Shown: positions 1 through 4,903 of the stretch, piece by piece
Position numbering within the stretch: the first letter of the stretch is position 1
Layout of the letters: each line of letters opens with the position of its first letter
IMG/VR virus record: IMGVR_UViG_2663762857_000011
Location: 1 to 4,903 of that record
Source: a virus
Lineage: Duplodnaviria; Heunggongvirae; Uroviricota; Caudoviricetes
Reading direction: 5' to 3' (one strand)
Length of the DNA stretch: 4,903 bases
The notes under the pieces: model-generated
Told to the model about the DNA's origin: nothing
Seen by the model: the letters and a program-made list of their open reading frames with translations, nothing else
Databases searched by the model: none
Program-made: the position numbers and the translations under genes

Positions 1-144
1 ACCGGGTTCTCCTTTCCATTTTTGGCAAACAAAAACTCCTGTTAAATTGCCGTGCTGGTTAACAGATGTATGCCCTACGATGTAGCTTCCTTTAGTTGCT
101 TTCTCTGCCTTTTCACGCAGTGCCTGATAGTTAATTTGGGTCAC
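1..144 (-). CDS. Hypothetical protein, partial: N-terminal 48 codons, continues past the left edge of the window
   Basis: GTG at 144..142 overlaps the upstream TGA stop (GTGA). GGAGG lies 7 nt upstream. The frame is open for 48 codons to position 1 (VTQINYQALREKAEKATKGSYIVGHTSVNQHGNLTGVFVCQKWKGEPG). Absent from the ORF track, presumably because it is truncated. No homology recognised. Confidence 0.4.
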   Translation of the reverse strand, partial: MTQINYQALREKAEKATKGSYIVGHTSVNQHGNLTGVFVCQKWKGEPG

Positions 145-365
145 TCTTCATCCTCCAAGTCGGCAACGGCGTCCATCACATCAGAACCGCGAATAACCTC
201 AAAAGCACGGCAGGCCATTTGAAATACCAGTTGCTCTTGCGGATGCGGTGATTCCCAATATTTGAATCCAGGGCGATGCGCGTACCCCATCATTGAATAA
301 AAATCACCAGCAAGCTTAATCGCGGCATCAACAAGCTCTCTGTTAGTCATTCTTTTTCCGCTCAC
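141..365 (-). CDS. Small hypothetical protein with acidic C-terminus (about 75 aa from GTG; ORF track gives 85 aa from an upstream start at 398)
   Basis: ORF track 141..398. The preferred start is GTG at 365..363, preceded by AAGGAGG at 6 nt spacing and overlapping the upstream stop as GTGA. C-terminus ...VMDAVADLEDEE. Leftward early operon context. No recognised domain. Confidence 0.55.
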   Translation of the reverse strand: MSGKRMTNRELVDAAIKLAGDFYSMMGYAHRPGFKYWESPHPQEQLVFQMACRAFEVIRGSDVMDAVADLEDEE

Positions 366-973
366 TGGTTGCCTCCTTTGCGAATCTGTTCCGCCCATTC
401 TTCTAGGGATTTCTCCGCATATTCACCGGACAGGCCATCAATCGGGTGTGGTTCATTAGCCAACTCTTCTTTCGCTGACAGAATCATGCGTGTAACGTCG
501 AAAACTTCACGTAAAGACTTATTGATAAATCCGTGATTGAAAGCAGCAGCAAGACGGCTTGCGGTATAGTTAATCCCCTCGTTGCGTGCTTCCGCACGAA
601 TTTCAGCCAGGAAATCATCGGTGGCTGGAGTTTCGCTGTGGTGCAGGGCATCGTTGATAATCATTGCAGCAACACCAGCCTGCCCTGCATCCGTGACCGA
701 CACATGCTCAAGAGTTACGGCCATTGCGTGTTTCAGCCCCGCATTCTCCGCCGCCAGCGCCGAAAACTTCTCGTGTGCCAACTTAACAGCTGCATCAGCC
801 TGCTTAATTGACTCAATCGCTTTCTGTTGGTCTTCGGACAGAGCCAAAATCTTGGCCTCCGCTTCAGCAAATTTACGCACCAGATATTCAGCATTTGTTT
901 CATTCACTTTCAGATCTCGTGGTACACATTTCCCGCGAAGAAACCCTTCCATTTCGAAAACATTCATGCGCAT
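362..973 (-). CDS. Hypothetical Ala-rich, probably alpha-helical protein (203 aa), early-left operon
   Basis: ORF track 362..973. ATG at 973 has GGAG 8 nt upstream and overlaps the upstream gene end by 10 nt. An alternative ATG at 967 forms an ATGA overlap with the upstream stop. The stop overlaps the next start (GTGA). No family recognised from sequence alone. Confidence 0.7.
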   Translation of the reverse strand: MRMNVFEMEGFLRGKCVPRDLKVNETNAEYLVRKFAEAEAKILALSEDQQKAIESIKQADAAVKLAHEKFSALAAENAGLKHAMAVTLEHVSVTDAGQAGVAAMIINDALHHSETPATDDFLAEIRAEARNEGINYTASRLAAAFNHGFINKSLREVFDVTRMILSAKEELANEPHPIDGLSGEYAEKSLEEWAEQIRKGGNQ

Positions 974-1500
974 GTGCGTAACTCCGATAACTCGTTAAAG
1001 CGCTCCATAAACATCCCGTAGGCATGGCTCGGAGCCAGTGGAATAACTTTGAACATTTCTGTTGCCGGGATACCTTCCAGTACTGGCCAGAAAGAGCCAT
1101 CATCAAGCCCGAGATCGCGACGTTCGGTTGCCAGCATAATGAGATCGGCATATTTCACTGGCGTGCTCATAACAGGAGGTAACCCGTATTTCTCACGGAT
1201 TACGGCGTCTATTTTTTCTTCCATCCGTTTATAGTCAGGAAGAAGGCGTTTCAGTGGCGCGGGGATGTCCTGGCAATACGCTTCTGTTGCATCATGCATT
1301 AATGCTTCAAAAGCAAATTCCTGCGGTACCAGCTGGCTGCAAAGCACCGCATGTTGGGCGACGCTGTAGAAATGAGAAAGATGACCGGCAAAGCGGCAGA
1401 TATTTGAAAGGGAAACCGCGATATCGTTAATCACGATGTCGTCTTTATTTATCTTGTCATAATAAAAATGCTTCCCGGAAAAAGTTTTAATAAATGACAT
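964..1500 (-). CDS. yfdR: HD-domain phosphohydrolase, YfdR-like 5'-deoxynucleotidase (178 aa)
   Basis: Start trimmed from the ORF-track 964..1569 to ATG at 1500..1498 (MSFIKTF...), which has GGAG about 7 nt upstream. HD signature: H...H (RFAGHLSHFYSVAQHA) followed by ALMHDATEAYCQDIPAPLKR, resembling the YfbR/YfdR pattern recalled from memory. Length equals the 178 aa recalled for prophage YfdR. The symbol is a family-level assignment, not a verified ortholog. Confidence 0.75.
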   Translation of the reverse strand: MSFIKTFSGKHFYYDKINKDDIVINDIAVSLSNICRFAGHLSHFYSVAQHAVLCSQLVPQEFAFEALMHDATEAYCQDIPAPLKRLLPDYKRMEEKIDAVIREKYGLPPVMSTPVKYADLIMLATERRDLGLDDGSFWPVLEGIPATEMFKVIPLAPSHAYGMFMERFNELSELRTCA

Positions 1501-1541
1501 TTTGTTCTCCACGTTATATGCGCTGCACCGCTCTGAATTTT

Positions 1542-1592
1542 GATTGCAGCAATCCAGCCCATTTGACATGGGATGATTGCTGCAATTTTTTT
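1542..1592 (+). terminator. Terminator-like extended hairpin on the plus strand (12 bp perfect stem, inner 5 bp stem, then T-run), opposing the minus-strand operon
   Basis: attgcagcaatc (1543..1554) pairs with gattgctgcaat (1575..1586). The loop holds a nested palindrome cccat-ttgac-atggg. Six to seven T follow (1586..1592) on the plus strand only. Lies between the RdgC-like stop (1591..1593) and the HD gene start (1500). Confidence 0.45.
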
Positions 1593-2508
1593 AAGTTGTT
1601 GGATTTTGGCTTTTATCTTCTTTGTAAGAAAGAAGGTCACACATCAAATTAACTACCTTGCTGAATTGGAAAAGGTCAGCGCCAGTCTGATGACGCCACT
1701 GGAATGCTTTATCATCTTCATCATTAAATGTCTGAGATTGAGTATTGATGCGCGAAAAATGGAAATTTTCGGTAAGAATGAAGGTCACACCGCAACCGGA
1801 TAACTCCATTTTATCAGCAGTGAAACTACTACTAAGGCTATCGGCCAGTTCGCTTTGAATTGACTCATGCTCAGCTGAGTAGCGAATAATTTCCTTTTGA
1901 TCTGCGTAGCGTGATAGCTGAATATAATTTCCGACAGTGAATCCTTCAAATGCATTGGCTGCACCATTGATGTAGTTATTCAGGCGTGTAGTCAGTCCAT
2001 TCTTGATATCACTGATGTTGATTGTTTCTGTTTTCACTGAACCGACAACCTTAATCAGCATTGCGCATACCATACCGGCTATTATTTTATTGGTTGTGTT
2101 GATTACCAATAATTTCTCATCAGTGCTGTACAATGCAAGAATCAGCGTAGACTTAACAAATGCCTGTTTGCATAGATCTACTCGTACGTTATCAATAATG
2201 GTCAGTCGTTCGGCACGCTTTAATTTATTCCCGGACATATTTTCGATTGTTTGGATTCGAGAATTAGCTTCTTTCATGACGACATGTCGGGGAATTATTT
2301 TCTGATCATGACGGATTACCATTGCGTACCCACCAGATATCGGAGTTACCAGTTCACCAGTGACAGGATTCTCTACAAAAGAGGACCGTGAAAGTTCTGT
2401 TTCCCCGATTTCAGAATAAGGGAGTTCGAGAAGATGACCTTCAATAGCCTGTATACTAGGTAATGTTGCTCGGTACACAATTGCGTTACGAAATTTTGGT
2501 AATTTCAT
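1591..2508 (-). CDS. rdgC: RdgC-like recombination-associated protein (306 aa)
   Basis: Start trimmed from the ORF-track 1591..2658 to ATG at 2508..2506 (MKLPKFRNAIVYR...), preceded by GAGGA at 7 nt. The N-terminal motif FRNAIVYR resembles RdgC FKNLMVYR. Further blocks (GYAMVIRHDQKIIPRHVVMK; KLKRAERLTIIDNVRVDLCKQAF) align with E. coli RdgC as recalled from memory. The upstream in-frame extension is a TTG-initiated read-through of the structured leader with no RBS. Confidence 0.75.
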   Translation of the reverse strand: MKLPKFRNAIVYRATLPSIQAIEGHLLELPYSEIGETELSRSSFVENPVTGELVTPISGGYAMVIRHDQKIIPRHVVMKEANSRIQTIENMSGNKLKRAERLTIIDNVRVDLCKQAFVKSTLILALYSTDEKLLVINTTNKIIAGMVCAMLIKVVGSVKTETINISDIKNGLTTRLNNYINGAANAFEGFTVGNYIQLSRYADQKEIIRYSAEHESIQSELADSLSSSFTADKMELSGCGVTFILTENFHFSRINTQSQTFNDEDDKAFQWRHQTGADLFQFSKVVNLMCDLLSYKEDKSQNPTT

Positions 2509-3107
2509 TCTATTTTCCTCTGCACAAGATATTAGTTTCTCCACAAAACAGAGAAGAACACCTGCGGTGGCAGCCGCCCGGGTGGATTGGGTTATGAGCC
2601 CGTCGTCCGGTGATGCTCTTCTCTGTTTTGTAAAAAGAGCGGTACCAGCCGGAAGCAAGTGTACAAACTGGTACCGCCAAAGCAGTGGCTGCTGTGGTGA
2701 CCGATGCTGATCTCCGGCTTGCGGTTATTTCAGACTCTCACGGGCGTTTAATTGCCCCGCCGAACAGCTCTTTTCCGCAATAGCTGCAATGTCTTTCGTG
2801 CATCAGCCTGCGCATTCACCACAACGCTGAGAGCACTTAGCCAGTTACGGCACCACACTTTGTCGCGGTTCCATAAATGCCCTCATCGTTGCACCCTGGT
2901 CTCTTCCCAGGTGTCAAACCGAACCGCCACGCTGGTTAGGCGTCTTATCAGCATCCTCATTGACTTGCACATTCCGGCTACCTGGTTTGTTTGCCCGAGC
3001 AAGGAGTGGATTGTCCCCTTTAACGTCCCCAGACCGCTAACGACGCATGTGCCATACGCCGTGTTACAACCAAATTTTGTTTAATCTTGCCTGTGACATG
3101 TTTCTTT
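2509..3107 (-). other. Long (~590 nt) untranslated, GC-enriched, inverted-repeat-rich leader between the pL-like promoter and the first leftward gene; candidate structured RNA or regulatory element
   Basis: No minus-strand ORF of 60 aa or more. All three minus frames are interrupted by stops (one frame has stops at 3066, 3039, 2916, 2847, 2805 and 2727). Local GC is about 55-57% against roughly 40-45% in flanking genes (estimated by eye). Multiple hairpins, including the 18 bp inverted repeat at 2543..2631 and GGTACCAG/CTGGTACC at 2641..2675. Confidence 0.4.
2543..2631 (-). repeat. 18 bp inverted repeat flanking a 53 nt GC-rich loop (89 nt hairpin) just upstream of the RdgC-like RBS
   Basis: Plus acaaaacagagaagaaca (2543..2560) against tgctcttctctgttttgt (2614..2631). 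The single mismatch is A/C on the plus strand but a G.U wobble on the minus-strand RNA, so the stem is fully paired only in the leftward transcript. Confidence 0.6.
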
Positions 3108-3142
3108 TAGATACATTATGTATCTCAAGGGTACATTGTCAA
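3108..3142 (-). promoter_or_regulatory. pL-like early leftward promoter (-35 TTGACA, 16 nt spacer, -10 CATAAT)
   Basis: On the minus strand, TTGACA at 3142..3137 and CATAAT at 3120..3115. Sits immediately downstream of the cI terminator and upstream of the leader. The -10 is overlapped by the 17 bp palindrome. Confidence 0.5.
3109..3125. promoter_or_regulatory. Operator-like 17 bp perfect palindrome (agatacat-t-atgtatct) overlapping the -10 of the pL-like promoter (oL candidate)
   Basis: Perfect 8 bp arms around a single central base. The position overlapping a promoter -10 is typical of a repressor operator. Confidence 0.45.
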
Positions 3143-3146
3143 GTAT

Positions 3147-3169
3147 AAAAAAACCTGCCGAAGCAGGTT
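3147..3169 (-). terminator. Rho-independent terminator downstream of the repressor gene
   Basis: Minus-strand RNA: AACCUGC-UUCG-GCAGGUU followed by five or more U. That is a 7 bp stem with a UUCG tetraloop, starting 12 nt after the cI stop at 3181..3183. Confidence 0.7.
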
Positions 3170-3180
3170 ATAAATATTGA

Positions 3181-3855
3181 TTAGGCCTTTATTTTGTATC
3201 TTCTTGGTTTTCCTGAGAAAATTACTGTGCCAATTATAGAGCAATTACCGTTGATCTTAATGTAAGGTTCAGGCCAGTTTGGGTTTAATGCTTTGAGGTA
3301 ACGCTGTGTTCCATCTTCTATCAACCGCTTAAAGGTGGTTTCGCCTGTATCGTGCATCAATGCAATAACGTCGTCACCGTGGCAGGCAGGGACTTCAGGA
3401 TCTACAAAAATCATGTCTCCCGGGCGGTACTCATCAATCATTGAATCACCAATCACCCGCAAGATATAAGTCATTTCGCCACAGGGTACAGGGCAGGGAT
3501 AAGTTTCTGCTGTGCTCAAATCAACCTCAGAATAGCCAACTTCTTTCCATGCTCCGGCCTGTACCCATGATATGACAGGGACTAACGTTATTTGTTTGTT
3601 AGTAATTGAAACATCAGGTTTTTTTGTGATGTTTGTTGTCTGGTGTTCTTGATCAAGCCATCCGACAGGCAGGTCGAAACATTTTTCGATGTGCCGTGCC
3701 ATGCTGTCACCGATATTTTTAGTAGCACCATCTCCCATAAACCTGCTGGTCTGGGTTGGCTCGCGATCAATCATGGTGGCAAAGGAAGAATTCCCGCCAA
3801 CACCATCTCTCAGTTTTCTGGCGTTAGACCGCCGGATGTCATGGACTGTTTTCAT
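3181..3855 (-). CDS. Prophage repressor, CI/LexA family (N-terminal HTH plus C-terminal S24 autopeptidase), 224 aa
   Basis: ORF track 3181..3855. The C-terminal domain has the S24 signature: GDSM with Ser138, FKRL with Lys176 (38 residues apart), and a candidate Ala100-Gly101 autocleavage site (VQAGAW). The N-terminal 70 aa is HTH-like. Divergent from the Cro-like gene and followed by a terminator. Confidence 0.9.
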   Translation of the reverse strand: MKTVHDIRRSNARKLRDGVGGNSSFATMIDREPTQTSRFMGDGATKNIGDSMARHIEKCFDLPVGWLDQEHQTTNITKKPDVSITNKQITLVPVISWVQAGAWKEVGYSEVDLSTAETYPCPVPCGEMTYILRVIGDSMIDEYRPGDMIFVDPEVPACHGDDVIALMHDTGETTFKRLIEDGTQRYLKALNPNWPEPYIKINGNCSIIGTVIFSGKPRRYKIKA

Positions 3856-3871
3856 AACGAAATTAAAACCT

Positions 3872-3890
3872 TTGTACCGATAGGGTACAA
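3872..3890. promoter_or_regulatory. Operator-like 19 bp perfect palindrome TTGTACC-gatag-GGTACAA in the cI/cro intergenic region (oR candidate)
   Basis: Perfect 7 bp arms with a 5 bp spacer. Located 17 bp from the cI start codon and about 55 bp upstream of the cro start. GTAC-containing half-site-like motifs recur at 3934..3948 and 3131..3136. Confidence 0.45.
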
Positions 3891-3945
3891 GTATCTTTAA
3901 GGTTCATCTCAATCATGTAGTATGTATATTGGAGGTACATATTGT

Positions 3946-4146
3946 ATGAAAGCGTATTGGGACTCTTTAACCAAAGAACAGCAGGGCGAGTTGGCCGGAA
4001 AAGTTGGCTCAACACCAGGCTACTTACGGCTGGTTTTCAATGGTTATAAAAAAGCCAGTTTTGTGCTGGCTAAAAAACTTGAGCAATGCACGTCAGGTGC
4101 AATTACGAAATCTGACTTAAGACCGGATATCTATCCGAAAGATTAA
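3946..4146 (+). CDS. Cro-like small HTH regulator (YdaS/Cro family), 66 aa
   Basis: Start trimmed from the ORF-track 3922..4146 to ATG at 3946, which has GGAGG at 3931..3935. The upstream ATG at 3922 has no RBS and would translate the SD itself. The C-terminal motif ...SGAITKSDLRPDIY resembles the YdaS-type Cro pattern (...G.V....LRPD). Divergent from the repressor. Confidence 0.75.
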   Translation: MKAYWDSLTKEQQGELAGKVGSTPGYLRLVFNGYKKASFVLAKKLEQCTSGAITKSDLRPDIYPKD

Positions 4147-4177
4147 CAGAACACCTTCAATTTTTAACCACAGAACG

Positions 4178-4747
4178 ATGAGGCTAACCGTGGGTAAGCA
4201 TCACTGGAAAGTAGAAAAACAGCCTGAGTGGTACGTGAAAGCTGTCAGAAAAACTATCGCGGCGTTGCCGGGGGGTTACGCTGAAGCTGCTGAGTGGCTG
4301 GATGTAACAGAGAACGCTTTATTCAATCGCCTTCGTGCCGATGGCGATCAGATTTTCCCGCTGGGATGGGCAATGATTTTACAACGTGCTGGTGGAACTC
4401 ACTTCATTGCTGACGCTGTGGCGCAGTCTGCAAATGGCGTCTTTGTGTCTCTTCCTGACGTCGAGGATGTGGACAACGCCGATATTAACCAGCGTCTGCT
4501 GGAAGTCATCGAACAGATCGGGAGTTACTCAAAGCAGATTCGTTCGGCAATCGAAGATGGGGTAGTGGAACCGCATGAGAAAACAGCAATTAACGACGAA
4601 CTGTATCTTTCAATTTCGAAGCTCCAGGAGCATGCAGCACTGGTCTACAAAATCTTCTGCGCTCCAGAAAAGAGTAACGCCCGCGAGTGTGCAGCTCCGG
4701 GCGTCGTGGCGTCGATTGCTTCTGGTTGTGGAGAAACTAACGCATGA
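4178..4747 (+). CDS. CII-like / YdaT-family early regulatory protein (189 aa; possible GTG start at 4190 giving 185 aa)
   Basis: ORF track 4178..4747. Sits directly after cro, the position that CII or YdaT occupies in lambdoid prophages. GAGG lies 6 nt before the in-frame GTG at 4190, whereas no clear SD precedes ATG 4178. The family assignment is by position and general resemblance only. Confidence 0.6.
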   Translation: MRLTVGKHHWKVEKQPEWYVKAVRKTIAALPGGYAEAAEWLDVTENALFNRLRADGDQIFPLGWAMILQRAGGTHFIADAVAQSANGVFVSLPDVEDVDNADINQRLLEVIEQIGSYSKQIRSAIEDGVVEPHEKTAINDELYLSISKLQEHAALVYKIFCAPEKSNARECAAPGVVASIASGCGETNA

Positions 4748-4903
4748 ATAGTTTAACGGCAAATAACCGTTTGCATATTGATTCTGCAATTCCGGGACGT
4801 TACACTGCTCAGGCACCTTATAAAGCGGGGGCCGGGCGTGGAAACCCGAAATTCAATATAGAGCACAACCGCGCTCATGCGGTTTTTTCGTGTCATGAGC
4901 ATC
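4744..4903 (+). CDS. Hypothetical protein, partial: N-terminal 53 codons, continues past the right edge; occupies the position of a replication or early gene
   Basis: ATG at 4744 overlaps the upstream TGA (ATGA). GGAG lies about 10 nt upstream. The frame is open to the window end (MNSLTANNRLHIDSAIPGRYTAQAPYKAGAGRGNPKFNIEHNRAHAVFSCHEH). No family recognised. Confidence 0.4.
   Translation, partial: MNSLTANNRLHIDSAIPGRYTAQAPYKAGAGRGNPKFNIEHNRAHAVFSCHEH

Follow-up and report, generated by a model that had tools for sequence, protein, structure and literature searches.

The stretch of DNA analysed in this work (the window) comprises the 4,903 nucleotides (nt) at positions 1 to 4,903 of IMG/VR virus record IMGVR_UViG_2663762857_000011 (Caudoviricetes) and covers the immunity region of a prophage that is lambdoid and belongs to the SfV / cdtI / mEp460 / Ayreon / e14 type. 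On its minus strand a cI-like repressor gene is followed by a terminator, a promoter, about 600 nt in which no open reading frame (ORF) was matched to a protein family, a gene for a homologue of the bacterial DNA-binding protein RdgC, the gene yfdR and two phage ORFs. The plus strand holds a Cro/YdaS-like gene, a CII/YmfL-like gene and an isrK-type RNA, in this order. The rdgC-like gene, which is the main subject here, is delimited by the following features.

1591-2508, minus strand: rdgC-like coding sequence of 305 amino acids (aa), ATG at 2508, stop codon ending at 1591
2516-2520, minus strand: Shine-Dalgarno (SD) sequence GAGGA, 7 nt 5' of the ATG at 2508 (sequence; alignment)
1546-2531, minus strand: rdgC cassette of 986 bp, lying between the blastn blocks 870-1545 and 2532-4773

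An RdgC-like gene at exactly these coordinates had been proposed in an initial annotation made from the sequence alone, and Pfam, PHROG and Foldseek all supported it. The start was placed at ATG 2508 because GAGGA lies 7 nt upstream and because the homologues agree in length and start: nearly all are 301-313 aa long and begin at the same MK residues. A longer ORF, called mechanically from TTG 2658, was rejected as the gene on the same grounds. In the alignment TGCAGAGG was invariant 5' of rdgC across 9 genera. Alignment to the Pfam RdgC family, which the initial annotation had named as a check, confirmed the family (PF04381; E-value 5e-31; score 108.5 bits, cut-off 25; 3-278 of the 298 profile positions aligned). 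The RdgC-like protein also matched PHROG 724 (E 1.7e-76) and, in a phmmer comparison, E. coli RdgC (2OWL; E 1.4e-9), and a 99%-identical gene of E. coli SW070917 is called rdgC by RefSeq. The clade has a specific conserved motif, GSVKTxTIxISDIKNGLTTRL. Homologues of 305 aa in more than 15 genera, with 22 invariant columns, point to purifying selection; compared with the Kluyvera copy the protein is 87% and the DNA 77% identical. Some members of the phage RdgC clade (P0111, P0113, P0116 and P0119) carry a C-terminal FtsK-gamma domain, a DNA-binding winged helix that binds FtsK orienting polar sequences (KOPS). At one locus (L011, 6001-7131) a gene of the clade is situated near genes for an ERF annealase and a RecA-dependent nuclease.

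E. coli RdgC is a ring-shaped dimer that binds duplex DNA non-specifically and hinders RecA (Briggs 2010; Ha 2007; for the biochemistry of the chromosomal protein see also Drees 2006, as reported in a paper that cites it). In both E. coli and P. aeruginosa RdgC a J-shaped fold dimerizes into a ring that encircles DNA. An AlphaFold monomer model of the phage protein, built with 65 homologues, reached a predicted local distance difference test (pLDDT) value of 88.8 and a predicted template modelling score (pTM) of 0.83. The three-domain J-shaped fold (base, centre and tip or finger) was recovered in the model, with two long finger helices at residues 74-92 and 98-115. In Foldseek the model matched 2OWL_A of E. 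coli with template modelling (TM) scores of 0.81/0.82 and E 3.9e-19, and whole-chain superposition on P. aeruginosa RdgC gave a TM score of 0.78 with E of about 1e-19. Residues were mapped by pairwise alignments to 2OWL and 2OWY onto the mutational data of Briggs 2010 and Ha 2007. The basic fingertip residues R97, K98, K100 and K101, which according to mutational data are needed by the E. coli protein for loading on circular DNA, correspond to N94, K95, K97 and R98; three of these four are basic and R101 adds one basic residue more. The gate residue F120 is kept as F117, R7, K119 and R209 take the places of the pore residues R4, R122 and R208, and the horseshoe residue E218 is kept as E220. 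Judged from the model and the alignments, the ORF is a genuine and intact phage-type RdgC in which the basic finger and the gate phenylalanine are retained. By homology, it would form a dimeric ring, bind DNA and antagonize RecA.

Around the repressor gene the following elements were found.

3181-3855, minus strand: cI-like repressor of the LexA family with an S24 peptidase domain (Pfam Peptidase_S24, E 1.5e-26; PHROG 4)
3152-3169, minus strand: intrinsic terminator of the cI transcript with a 7-bp stem, a TTCG loop and T7 (terminator scan)
3115-3142, minus strand: pL-like sigma-70 promoter TTGACA-16-CATAAT (11/12; promoter scan)
3098-3136, no strand assigned: two oL operators, at 3118-3136 and 3098-3116 (repeat families; pattern search)
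3872-3940, no strand assigned: three oR operators, at 3872-3890, 3889-3907 and 3922-3940 (repeat families; pattern search)

The translated repressor contains a VQAG cleavage site, the GDSM serine and the FKRL lysine; together with the S24 domain these agree with the earlier prediction that the repressor would be cleavable through RecA. The operator is a 19-bp quasi-palindrome, ATGTAYC-N5-GRTACAT, present in five copies, two at pL and three in or beside the cI-cro interval, and the oL copies overlap the spacer, the -10 and the start region of pL. Two 19-bp operators over a promoter that follows the cI terminator are the signature of oL/pL, and the five-copy operator defines the immunity specificity of this phage group. 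Since cI and rdgC are separated by the cI terminator and by pL/oL, rdgC is controlled by the repressor and is not part of the cI transcript. Zheng et al. (2025; PMC12315714) noted that a few lambdoid phages have an RdgC homologue to the left of cI and suggested, from the structural resemblance of RexA and RdgC, that these homologues may be co-transcribed with cI and have a RexA-like role. For this phage, the pL layout contradicts the suggested cI transcript. In the Klebsiella relatives, which form the largest cluster (1,226 member sequences), the interval from cI to rdgC likewise holds a TTGACC promoter with operator repeats on both sides. The initial annotation had described rdgC as the first gene of the leftward operon, and among protein genes it does come first behind the pL-like promoter and its two operators. 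The further statement that it is expressed first from pL needed correction, since a structured non-coding leader of about 600 nt with a conserved intrinsic terminator precedes it.

This leader between pL and rdgC has a GC content of 0.55, compared with about 0.42 in its flanks, and its folding relative to shuffled sequences gave a z-score of -4.1 on the transcribed strand and -2.1 on the opposite strand. Its structured parts, and a further hairpin at the other end of rdgC, are listed below.

2819-3062, minus strand: conserved structured RNA of 244 nt with seven helices (RNAalifold, 17 diverse copies)
2632-2678, minus strand: intrinsic-terminator-like hairpin GGCGGTACCAG..CTGGTACCGC followed by TCTTTTT, with a 13-bp GC-rich stem of about -20 kcal/mol
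2538-2636, minus strand: hairpin with a 25-bp stem, arms 2636-2612 and 2562-2538, -49.2 kcal/mol, z-score -6.05
1543-1586, minus strand: hairpin of 12 bp directly after the rdgC stop codon, with A7 before it, -29.6 kcal/mol, z-score -3.1

The leader terminator, with its hairpin at 2678-2639, is kept 5' of rdgC in Atlantibacter, Raoultella, Enterobacter and Shigella, as seen in the alignment. A GGCGG..CCGCC terminator followed by CUUUUUACA is also present after the RNA element in epsilon15-like phages. In phages of the epsilon15/phiV10 type it closes a unit of element plus tRNA, with a covarying stem GGCGGUGAUGG../..CUAUCACCGCC and CUUUUUACA (L004, 2862-2905). Since the same terminator follows the element with or without a tRNA, the unit looks like a non-coding RNA gene with a terminator of its own. 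The CGCUCUUUUUACAA that follows the terminator stem was also considered as a boxA-like sequence; this was rejected, because relatives have GCCCUUUUU at this place, which fits better with the U-tract of a terminator. A consensus scan found no promoter between the leader terminator and the ATG of rdgC. With a terminator in the leader and no promoter before the gene, rdgC would need read-through from pL.

The 25-bp hairpin ends 18 nt 5' of the SD sequence, and compensatory changes 5' of rdgC in other genera give moderate support for its conservation. The analogy to the lambda N leader makes this hairpin a candidate site for RNase III. The hairpin after the stop codon reads as a hairpin plus T7 on the plus strand and therefore resembles a terminator in either direction; it is part of the rdgC cassette and is kept in the Klebsiella and Shigella copies.

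The 244-nt RNA element begins 46 nt 3' of the predicted pL start. RNAalifold placed 47 pairs in the 17 copies, 7 of them with compensatory changes; 97.6% of the cells were paired, against 29-49% with slid partners, and the covariation score was 0.173 against at most 0.064. Long single-stranded blocks are invariant, for example GGUAGCCGGAAUGUGCAAG and a GGAAGAG loop. The ORFs that lie wholly inside the leader on the minus strand are all 39 aa or shorter. A coding function was also rejected for a 56-aa ORF (TTG 2680-2510) that spans both terminator and long hairpin and stops within the SD sequence, and for a 110-aa ORF on the plus strand (2752-3084) without a match in Pfam, PHROG or PADLOC. The copies of the element are 229, 231, 236, 237, 240, 241, 244, 245, 250 and further numbers of nt long, and differences that are not multiples of three argue against coding.

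A model (R1), derived from an RNAalifold structure whose helix 1 differs from that of the better-supported structure, served for searching only. Rfam 15 gave no match at E of 1 or below over the window and none better than E 1 with the leader alone. ARAGORN was negative on the leader, and R1 had no match in lambda or in HK022, which has put. The conserved 19-mer of the element was not found in the searchable literature, nor did a 2025 review of phage small RNAs contain anything resembling the leader RNA. The 19-mer alone matched more than 120 viral contigs, and the element was present in about a third of the complete E. coli genomes (1,833 of 5,426); among the 12 E. coli matches listed no annotation covers it, except for a flanking tRNA-Arg in one.

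The element was encountered in three contexts: directly 3' of the genes for cI-like repressors, which represent several immunity types and are 31-100% identical to the cI of the window, in P1-like phage-plasmids 15 nt after tRNA(CAU) and upstream of ban, and in epsilon15-like phages, abutting tRNA-Arg(UCU). An obligate link between element and rdgC was rejected: among 30 rdgC loci R1 had matches 5' of rdgC only in this lineage and, weakly, in one Serratia metagenome-assembled genome. A 190-nt Klebsiella leader (L006, 5815-6000) appeared by eye to retain GGUGUGAC, the hairpin with GGAAGAGACGAG and a long closing helix that has UUGUGUGG at its end, and these parts resemble the 3' half of the 244-nt element, which probably explains the weak R1 match of 22.5 bits. 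Positions 2690-2838 of the window, that is the 3' end of the element and the spacer, are 94-97% identical to a segment of P1-like phage-plasmids (L021 3466-3610, L051 11956-12104 and L014 10653-10720). There the segment is situated about 1.5 kb from the phage-plasmid's own copy of the 5' domain of the element, in reversed order. This identity and the displacement indicate a recent mosaic exchange.

The limits of the rdgC cassette and its neighbour were determined by comparison with relatives.

964-1500, minus strand: yfdR, an HD-domain 5'-deoxynucleotidase of 178 aa (PHROG 318, E 1.9e-111; RefSeq yfdR; tblastn panel)

In Ayreon, cdtI and similar phages the blocks 870-1545 and 2532-4773 are 93-99% identical to the window, and yfdP/yfdQ lie between them. 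The cassette, with its own SD sequence and its post-stop hairpin, is inserted between a widely shared pL leader and yfdR. The idea that rdgC takes the slot in which lambdoid phages usually carry recombination functions was not upheld, since those genes lie in the middle of the operon and the closest relatives have yfdP/yfdQ here. The allele was found in 24 of the 5,426 E. coli genomes and was annotated rdgC every time. As relatives of the clade, 165 were detected, in Citrobacter, Kluyvera, Klebsiella, Enterobacter, Cronobacter, Shigella, Hafnia, Rahnella, Edwardsiella, Proteus, Pseudomonas and others. Synteny was examined in a panel of 28 rdgC loci (22 species genomes and 6 others). In 22 of them an S24 repressor gene precedes rdgC on the same strand at a distance of no more than 3.1 kb, with at least 6 immunity types represented, and yfdR follows rdgC directly on its 3' side in 10, down to 36% RdgC identity (Morganella, Proteus; L134-L152).

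No homologue of Red, Erf, RecT, Gam or Abc2 was present in the window, and no Rec-module gene was found from rdgC to int in the annotated leftward operon of a 98.7%-identical prophage (L002). In the 28 loci tblastn gave no match to lambda Exo/Bet/Gam, HK022 Erf/Abc2, Rac RecE/RecT or RexA/RexB, and from rdgC to int the Pfam-labelled neighbourhoods of six lambdoid loci showed no family of the Rec module; such searches could overlook annealases that are very divergent. The earlier observation that no Red or Erf-type recombinase is visible can be extended in this way from the window to the operon of L002 and 27 other loci. In about 22 kb of the near-identical prophage (L002 10233-32734) one strand carries 13 copies of Chi (GCTGGTGG) and the opposite strand 3, where by our own arithmetic about 0.3 per strand would be expected by chance. 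One copy is found in the window, at 4388, inside the CII-like gene. Zheng et al. (2025) proposed that lambdoid phages of the class 'no Rec module, high Chi' depend on host RecBCD. Without a Rec module and with many Chi sites the phage fits this class, and it appears to depend on host RecBCD-Chi-RecA recombination.

Two further parts of the window deserve mention.

4813-4889, plus strand: Hfq-binding RNA of the isrK family (57.7 bits, gathering score 50), just after the CII/YmfL-like gene

An overlapping weak match to the c4 antisense target a1/b1 was seen at the isrK-family RNA, and in relatives a Rha/antirepressor gene comes after the isrK-type RNA. An isrK/c4-like RNA with such a gene next to it in relatives suggests an antisense-type control of the antirepressor. 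On the minus strand, ORF 362-973 is a mosaic of which the first 47 residues match phrog_583, a family of 120 aa, and the remainder matches phrog_368/492/614; the gene after yfdR in the near-identical prophage is only 120 aa long.

From the observed family, fold and position of the gene, the promoter/operator layout, the leader anatomy, the synteny and the absence of a Rec module an explanation was composed that, in our estimation, has an equal chance of being right or wrong. It holds that the locus is a cI-controlled phage RdgC cassette which is reached through a read-through leader, limits RecA and forms an early cassette with YfdR. In the lysogen, rdgC would be shut off by cI at oL. After derepression, transcription from pL would produce the structured leader RNA first and would then have to pass the conserved intrinsic terminator. 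Transcripts that read through would carry the 25-bp hairpin, a probable RNase III site, right before the ribosome-binding site of rdgC. The protein most likely acts like chromosomal RdgC in binding duplex DNA without sequence preference, and by coating the DNA it would limit the activity of RecA filaments, both in strand exchange and as co-protease. With the DnaA-binding YfdR as its partner in an early cassette, it could retune how the host replicates and recombines its DNA. The processing by RNase III, the read-through and the partnership with YfdR are steps that we infer.

Several observations weigh against this explanation. Modulation of RecA or of the SOS response by the phage protein is a guess made from homology, and the identity between the phage protein and E. 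coli RdgC is only about 19%. Moreover, every NCBIfam RdgC cut-off (PRK00321 models) was missed, with 91 bits against 227 as the best result and the others further below. Low identity and missed cut-offs together place the protein in a phage subfamily of its own rather than among the orthologues of housekeeping RdgC, and in such a subfamily the function may have changed. The gate residue R118 is not kept but pairs in the pairwise alignment with Q115, next to K114, and the horseshoe residues Q212, H222 and K227 are replaced by H214, S224 and F229, in a part of the alignment that is of low confidence. The conserved terminator in the leader bears on the level and the timing of rdgC expression. In Klebsiella prophages no terminator was found between cI and rdgC, so that some expression of rdgC in the lysogen is possible there. 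If the phage depends on RecBCD, Chi and RecA of its host, wholesale inhibition of RecA is less obviously useful. Finally, hrdC of P1, a distant homologue, was non-essential in a CRISPR interference (CRISPRi) screen.

The pairing with yfdR allows another explanation, namely that RdgC replaces YfdQ as the partner of YfdR and that the two shut down replication of the host chromosome, YfdR by blocking DnaA-dependent initiation and RdgC by blocking RecA/PriA-dependent restart or SOS-induced stable replication. YfdR binds DnaA, and its over-expression with yfdQ and yfdS or yfdT inhibits initiation (PMC4776307). The rdgC gene occupies exactly the yfdP/yfdQ slot of the relatives, the rdgC-yfdR pair recurs in 10 of 28 loci even at 36% RdgC identity, and chromosomal rdgC interacts genetically with priA. 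However, 18 of the 28 rdgC loci have no adjacent yfdR, and the interchange of YfdQ and RdgC is a purely positional reading. We consider it unlikely that replication control is the role of the gene, but give it an appreciable chance.

A RexA-like role, as suggested by Zheng et al. (2025), would have the protein made in the lysogen on the cI transcript and acting in superinfection exclusion or in biasing the choice between lysis and lysogeny. The position just left of cI, which was found in 22 of the 28 loci and is that of lambda rexA, agrees with this, as do the RdgC centre and base domains of RexA (Adams 2024) and the Klebsiella prophages without a terminator after cI. In the window, on the other hand, a terminator and pL separate cI from rdgC, and the protein has no detectable similarity to RexA. 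A relationship with RexA was rejected on an hhalign probability of 0.1%, and RexA was not among the matches of two fold searches. Such a role is in our view quite unlikely.

That rdgC would be a dispensable passenger, recently acquired and with little or no role in the life cycle, is improbable. It would agree with the rarity of the gene (24 of 5,426 E. coli genomes), the non-essentiality of P1 hrdC and the terminator upstream, but the reading frame is intact across many genera with the protein more conserved than the DNA, the SD sequence and the flanking hairpins are conserved, and in at least 6 immunity types the gene stays beside the repressor. Right after pL is a common place for host-takeover and anti-restriction genes in lambdoid phages. 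From the position of rdgC immediately after pL, and from the E. coli finger being needed for loading only when the DNA is circular, which we take to mean that linear DNA is threaded from its ends, one could imagine a ring that threads linear phage DNA and shields it from nucleases or DNA-sensing defence, like Gam or Ku, but a Chi-rich phage without a RecBCD inhibitor would use RecBCD and not block it, no support was found in the literature, and we regard this as very improbable. An assignment to defence or anti-defence was rejected as well, since PADLOC gave no match for RdgC, YfdR or the downstream ORFs.

With the cI-controlled RdgC cassette as the preferred explanation, a phage RdgC that is early and repressor-controlled becomes a candidate tuner of the RecBCD/Chi/RecA pathway of the host or of the inducing RecA signal, and control from pL, the full RdgC fold and the pairing with YfdR make its role testable. 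The leader RNA is common, un-annotated and experimentally accessible, and could explain early leftward transcription in lambdoid phages without N. It is tentatively conceived, with a small but real chance, as a new class of phage regulatory RNA, either a put-like antiterminator that acts, independently of protein, on the very polymerase by which it was transcribed or a stable early non-coding RNA, that gates RdgC and its neighbours. In this conception the RNA is what pL yields first, and the entire early-left operon of these N-less phages, rdgC included, would be reached only by transcription past the terminator at the end of the RNA module. It is the more novel item compared with rdgC and deserves an independent follow-up.

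HrdC of phage P1 has been annotated for two decades. Given a named PHROG, P1 HrdC, the rdgC call of RefSeq and the work of Zheng et al. (2025), the presence of an RdgC in such a phage was already known. What this analysis adds is control from pL rather than co-transcription with cI, the full RdgC fold and the limits of the cassette, as well as the repeated pairing of rdgC with yfdR, the finding that a Rec module is consistently lacking, and the anatomy of the leader. Compared with chromosomal RdgC (2OWL, 2OWY), which is a housekeeping protein, the phage gene is prophage-borne and under repressor control. It shares PHROG 724 with the homologues in P1/P7 (HrdC) and in Vibrio, Pseudomonas, Klebsiella and Yersinia phages. 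Nearest among the phage copies are those of Klebsiella phages ST101-KPC2phi6.3 and Kp4886-3 (66-67% identity), followed by Yersinia phage YeP2 (46.5%), whereas P1 HrdC has about 22% identity to the RdgC of the window and a different genomic context. The arrangement described by Zheng, Casjens, Davidson, Amundsen and Smith (2025; PMC12315714) is the same in having an RdgC homologue just left of cI and no Rec module, but here the cI terminator and pL/oL intervene and the protein is a full RdgC and not RexA-like. Lambda RexA, a non-specific DNA binder with RdgC-like centre and base domains, is also encoded left of cI; it works with RexB and is transcribed with cI, and neither holds for the rdgC of the window.

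The same early-left neighbourhood is found in the cryptic prophage CPS-53 (yfdQ-yfdR-yfdS-yfdT), with rdgC here in the place of yfdP/yfdQ and yfdR next to it. RdgC is unrelated to YfdQ (DUF2303), and the replication-inhibition phenotype of CPS-53 belongs to yfdQRS/T and not to rdgC. The leader is comparable to the RNase III hairpin of the lambda N leader and to put of HK022 in being a structured RNA between pL and the first gene. A long duplex also lies beside the ribosome-binding site, and the phage of the window lacks N and must pass terminators. It has no similarity to HK022 put and differs from it in its 244 nt, its seven helices, its own terminator and its additional occurrence beside tRNA genes in P1-like and epsilon15-like phages.

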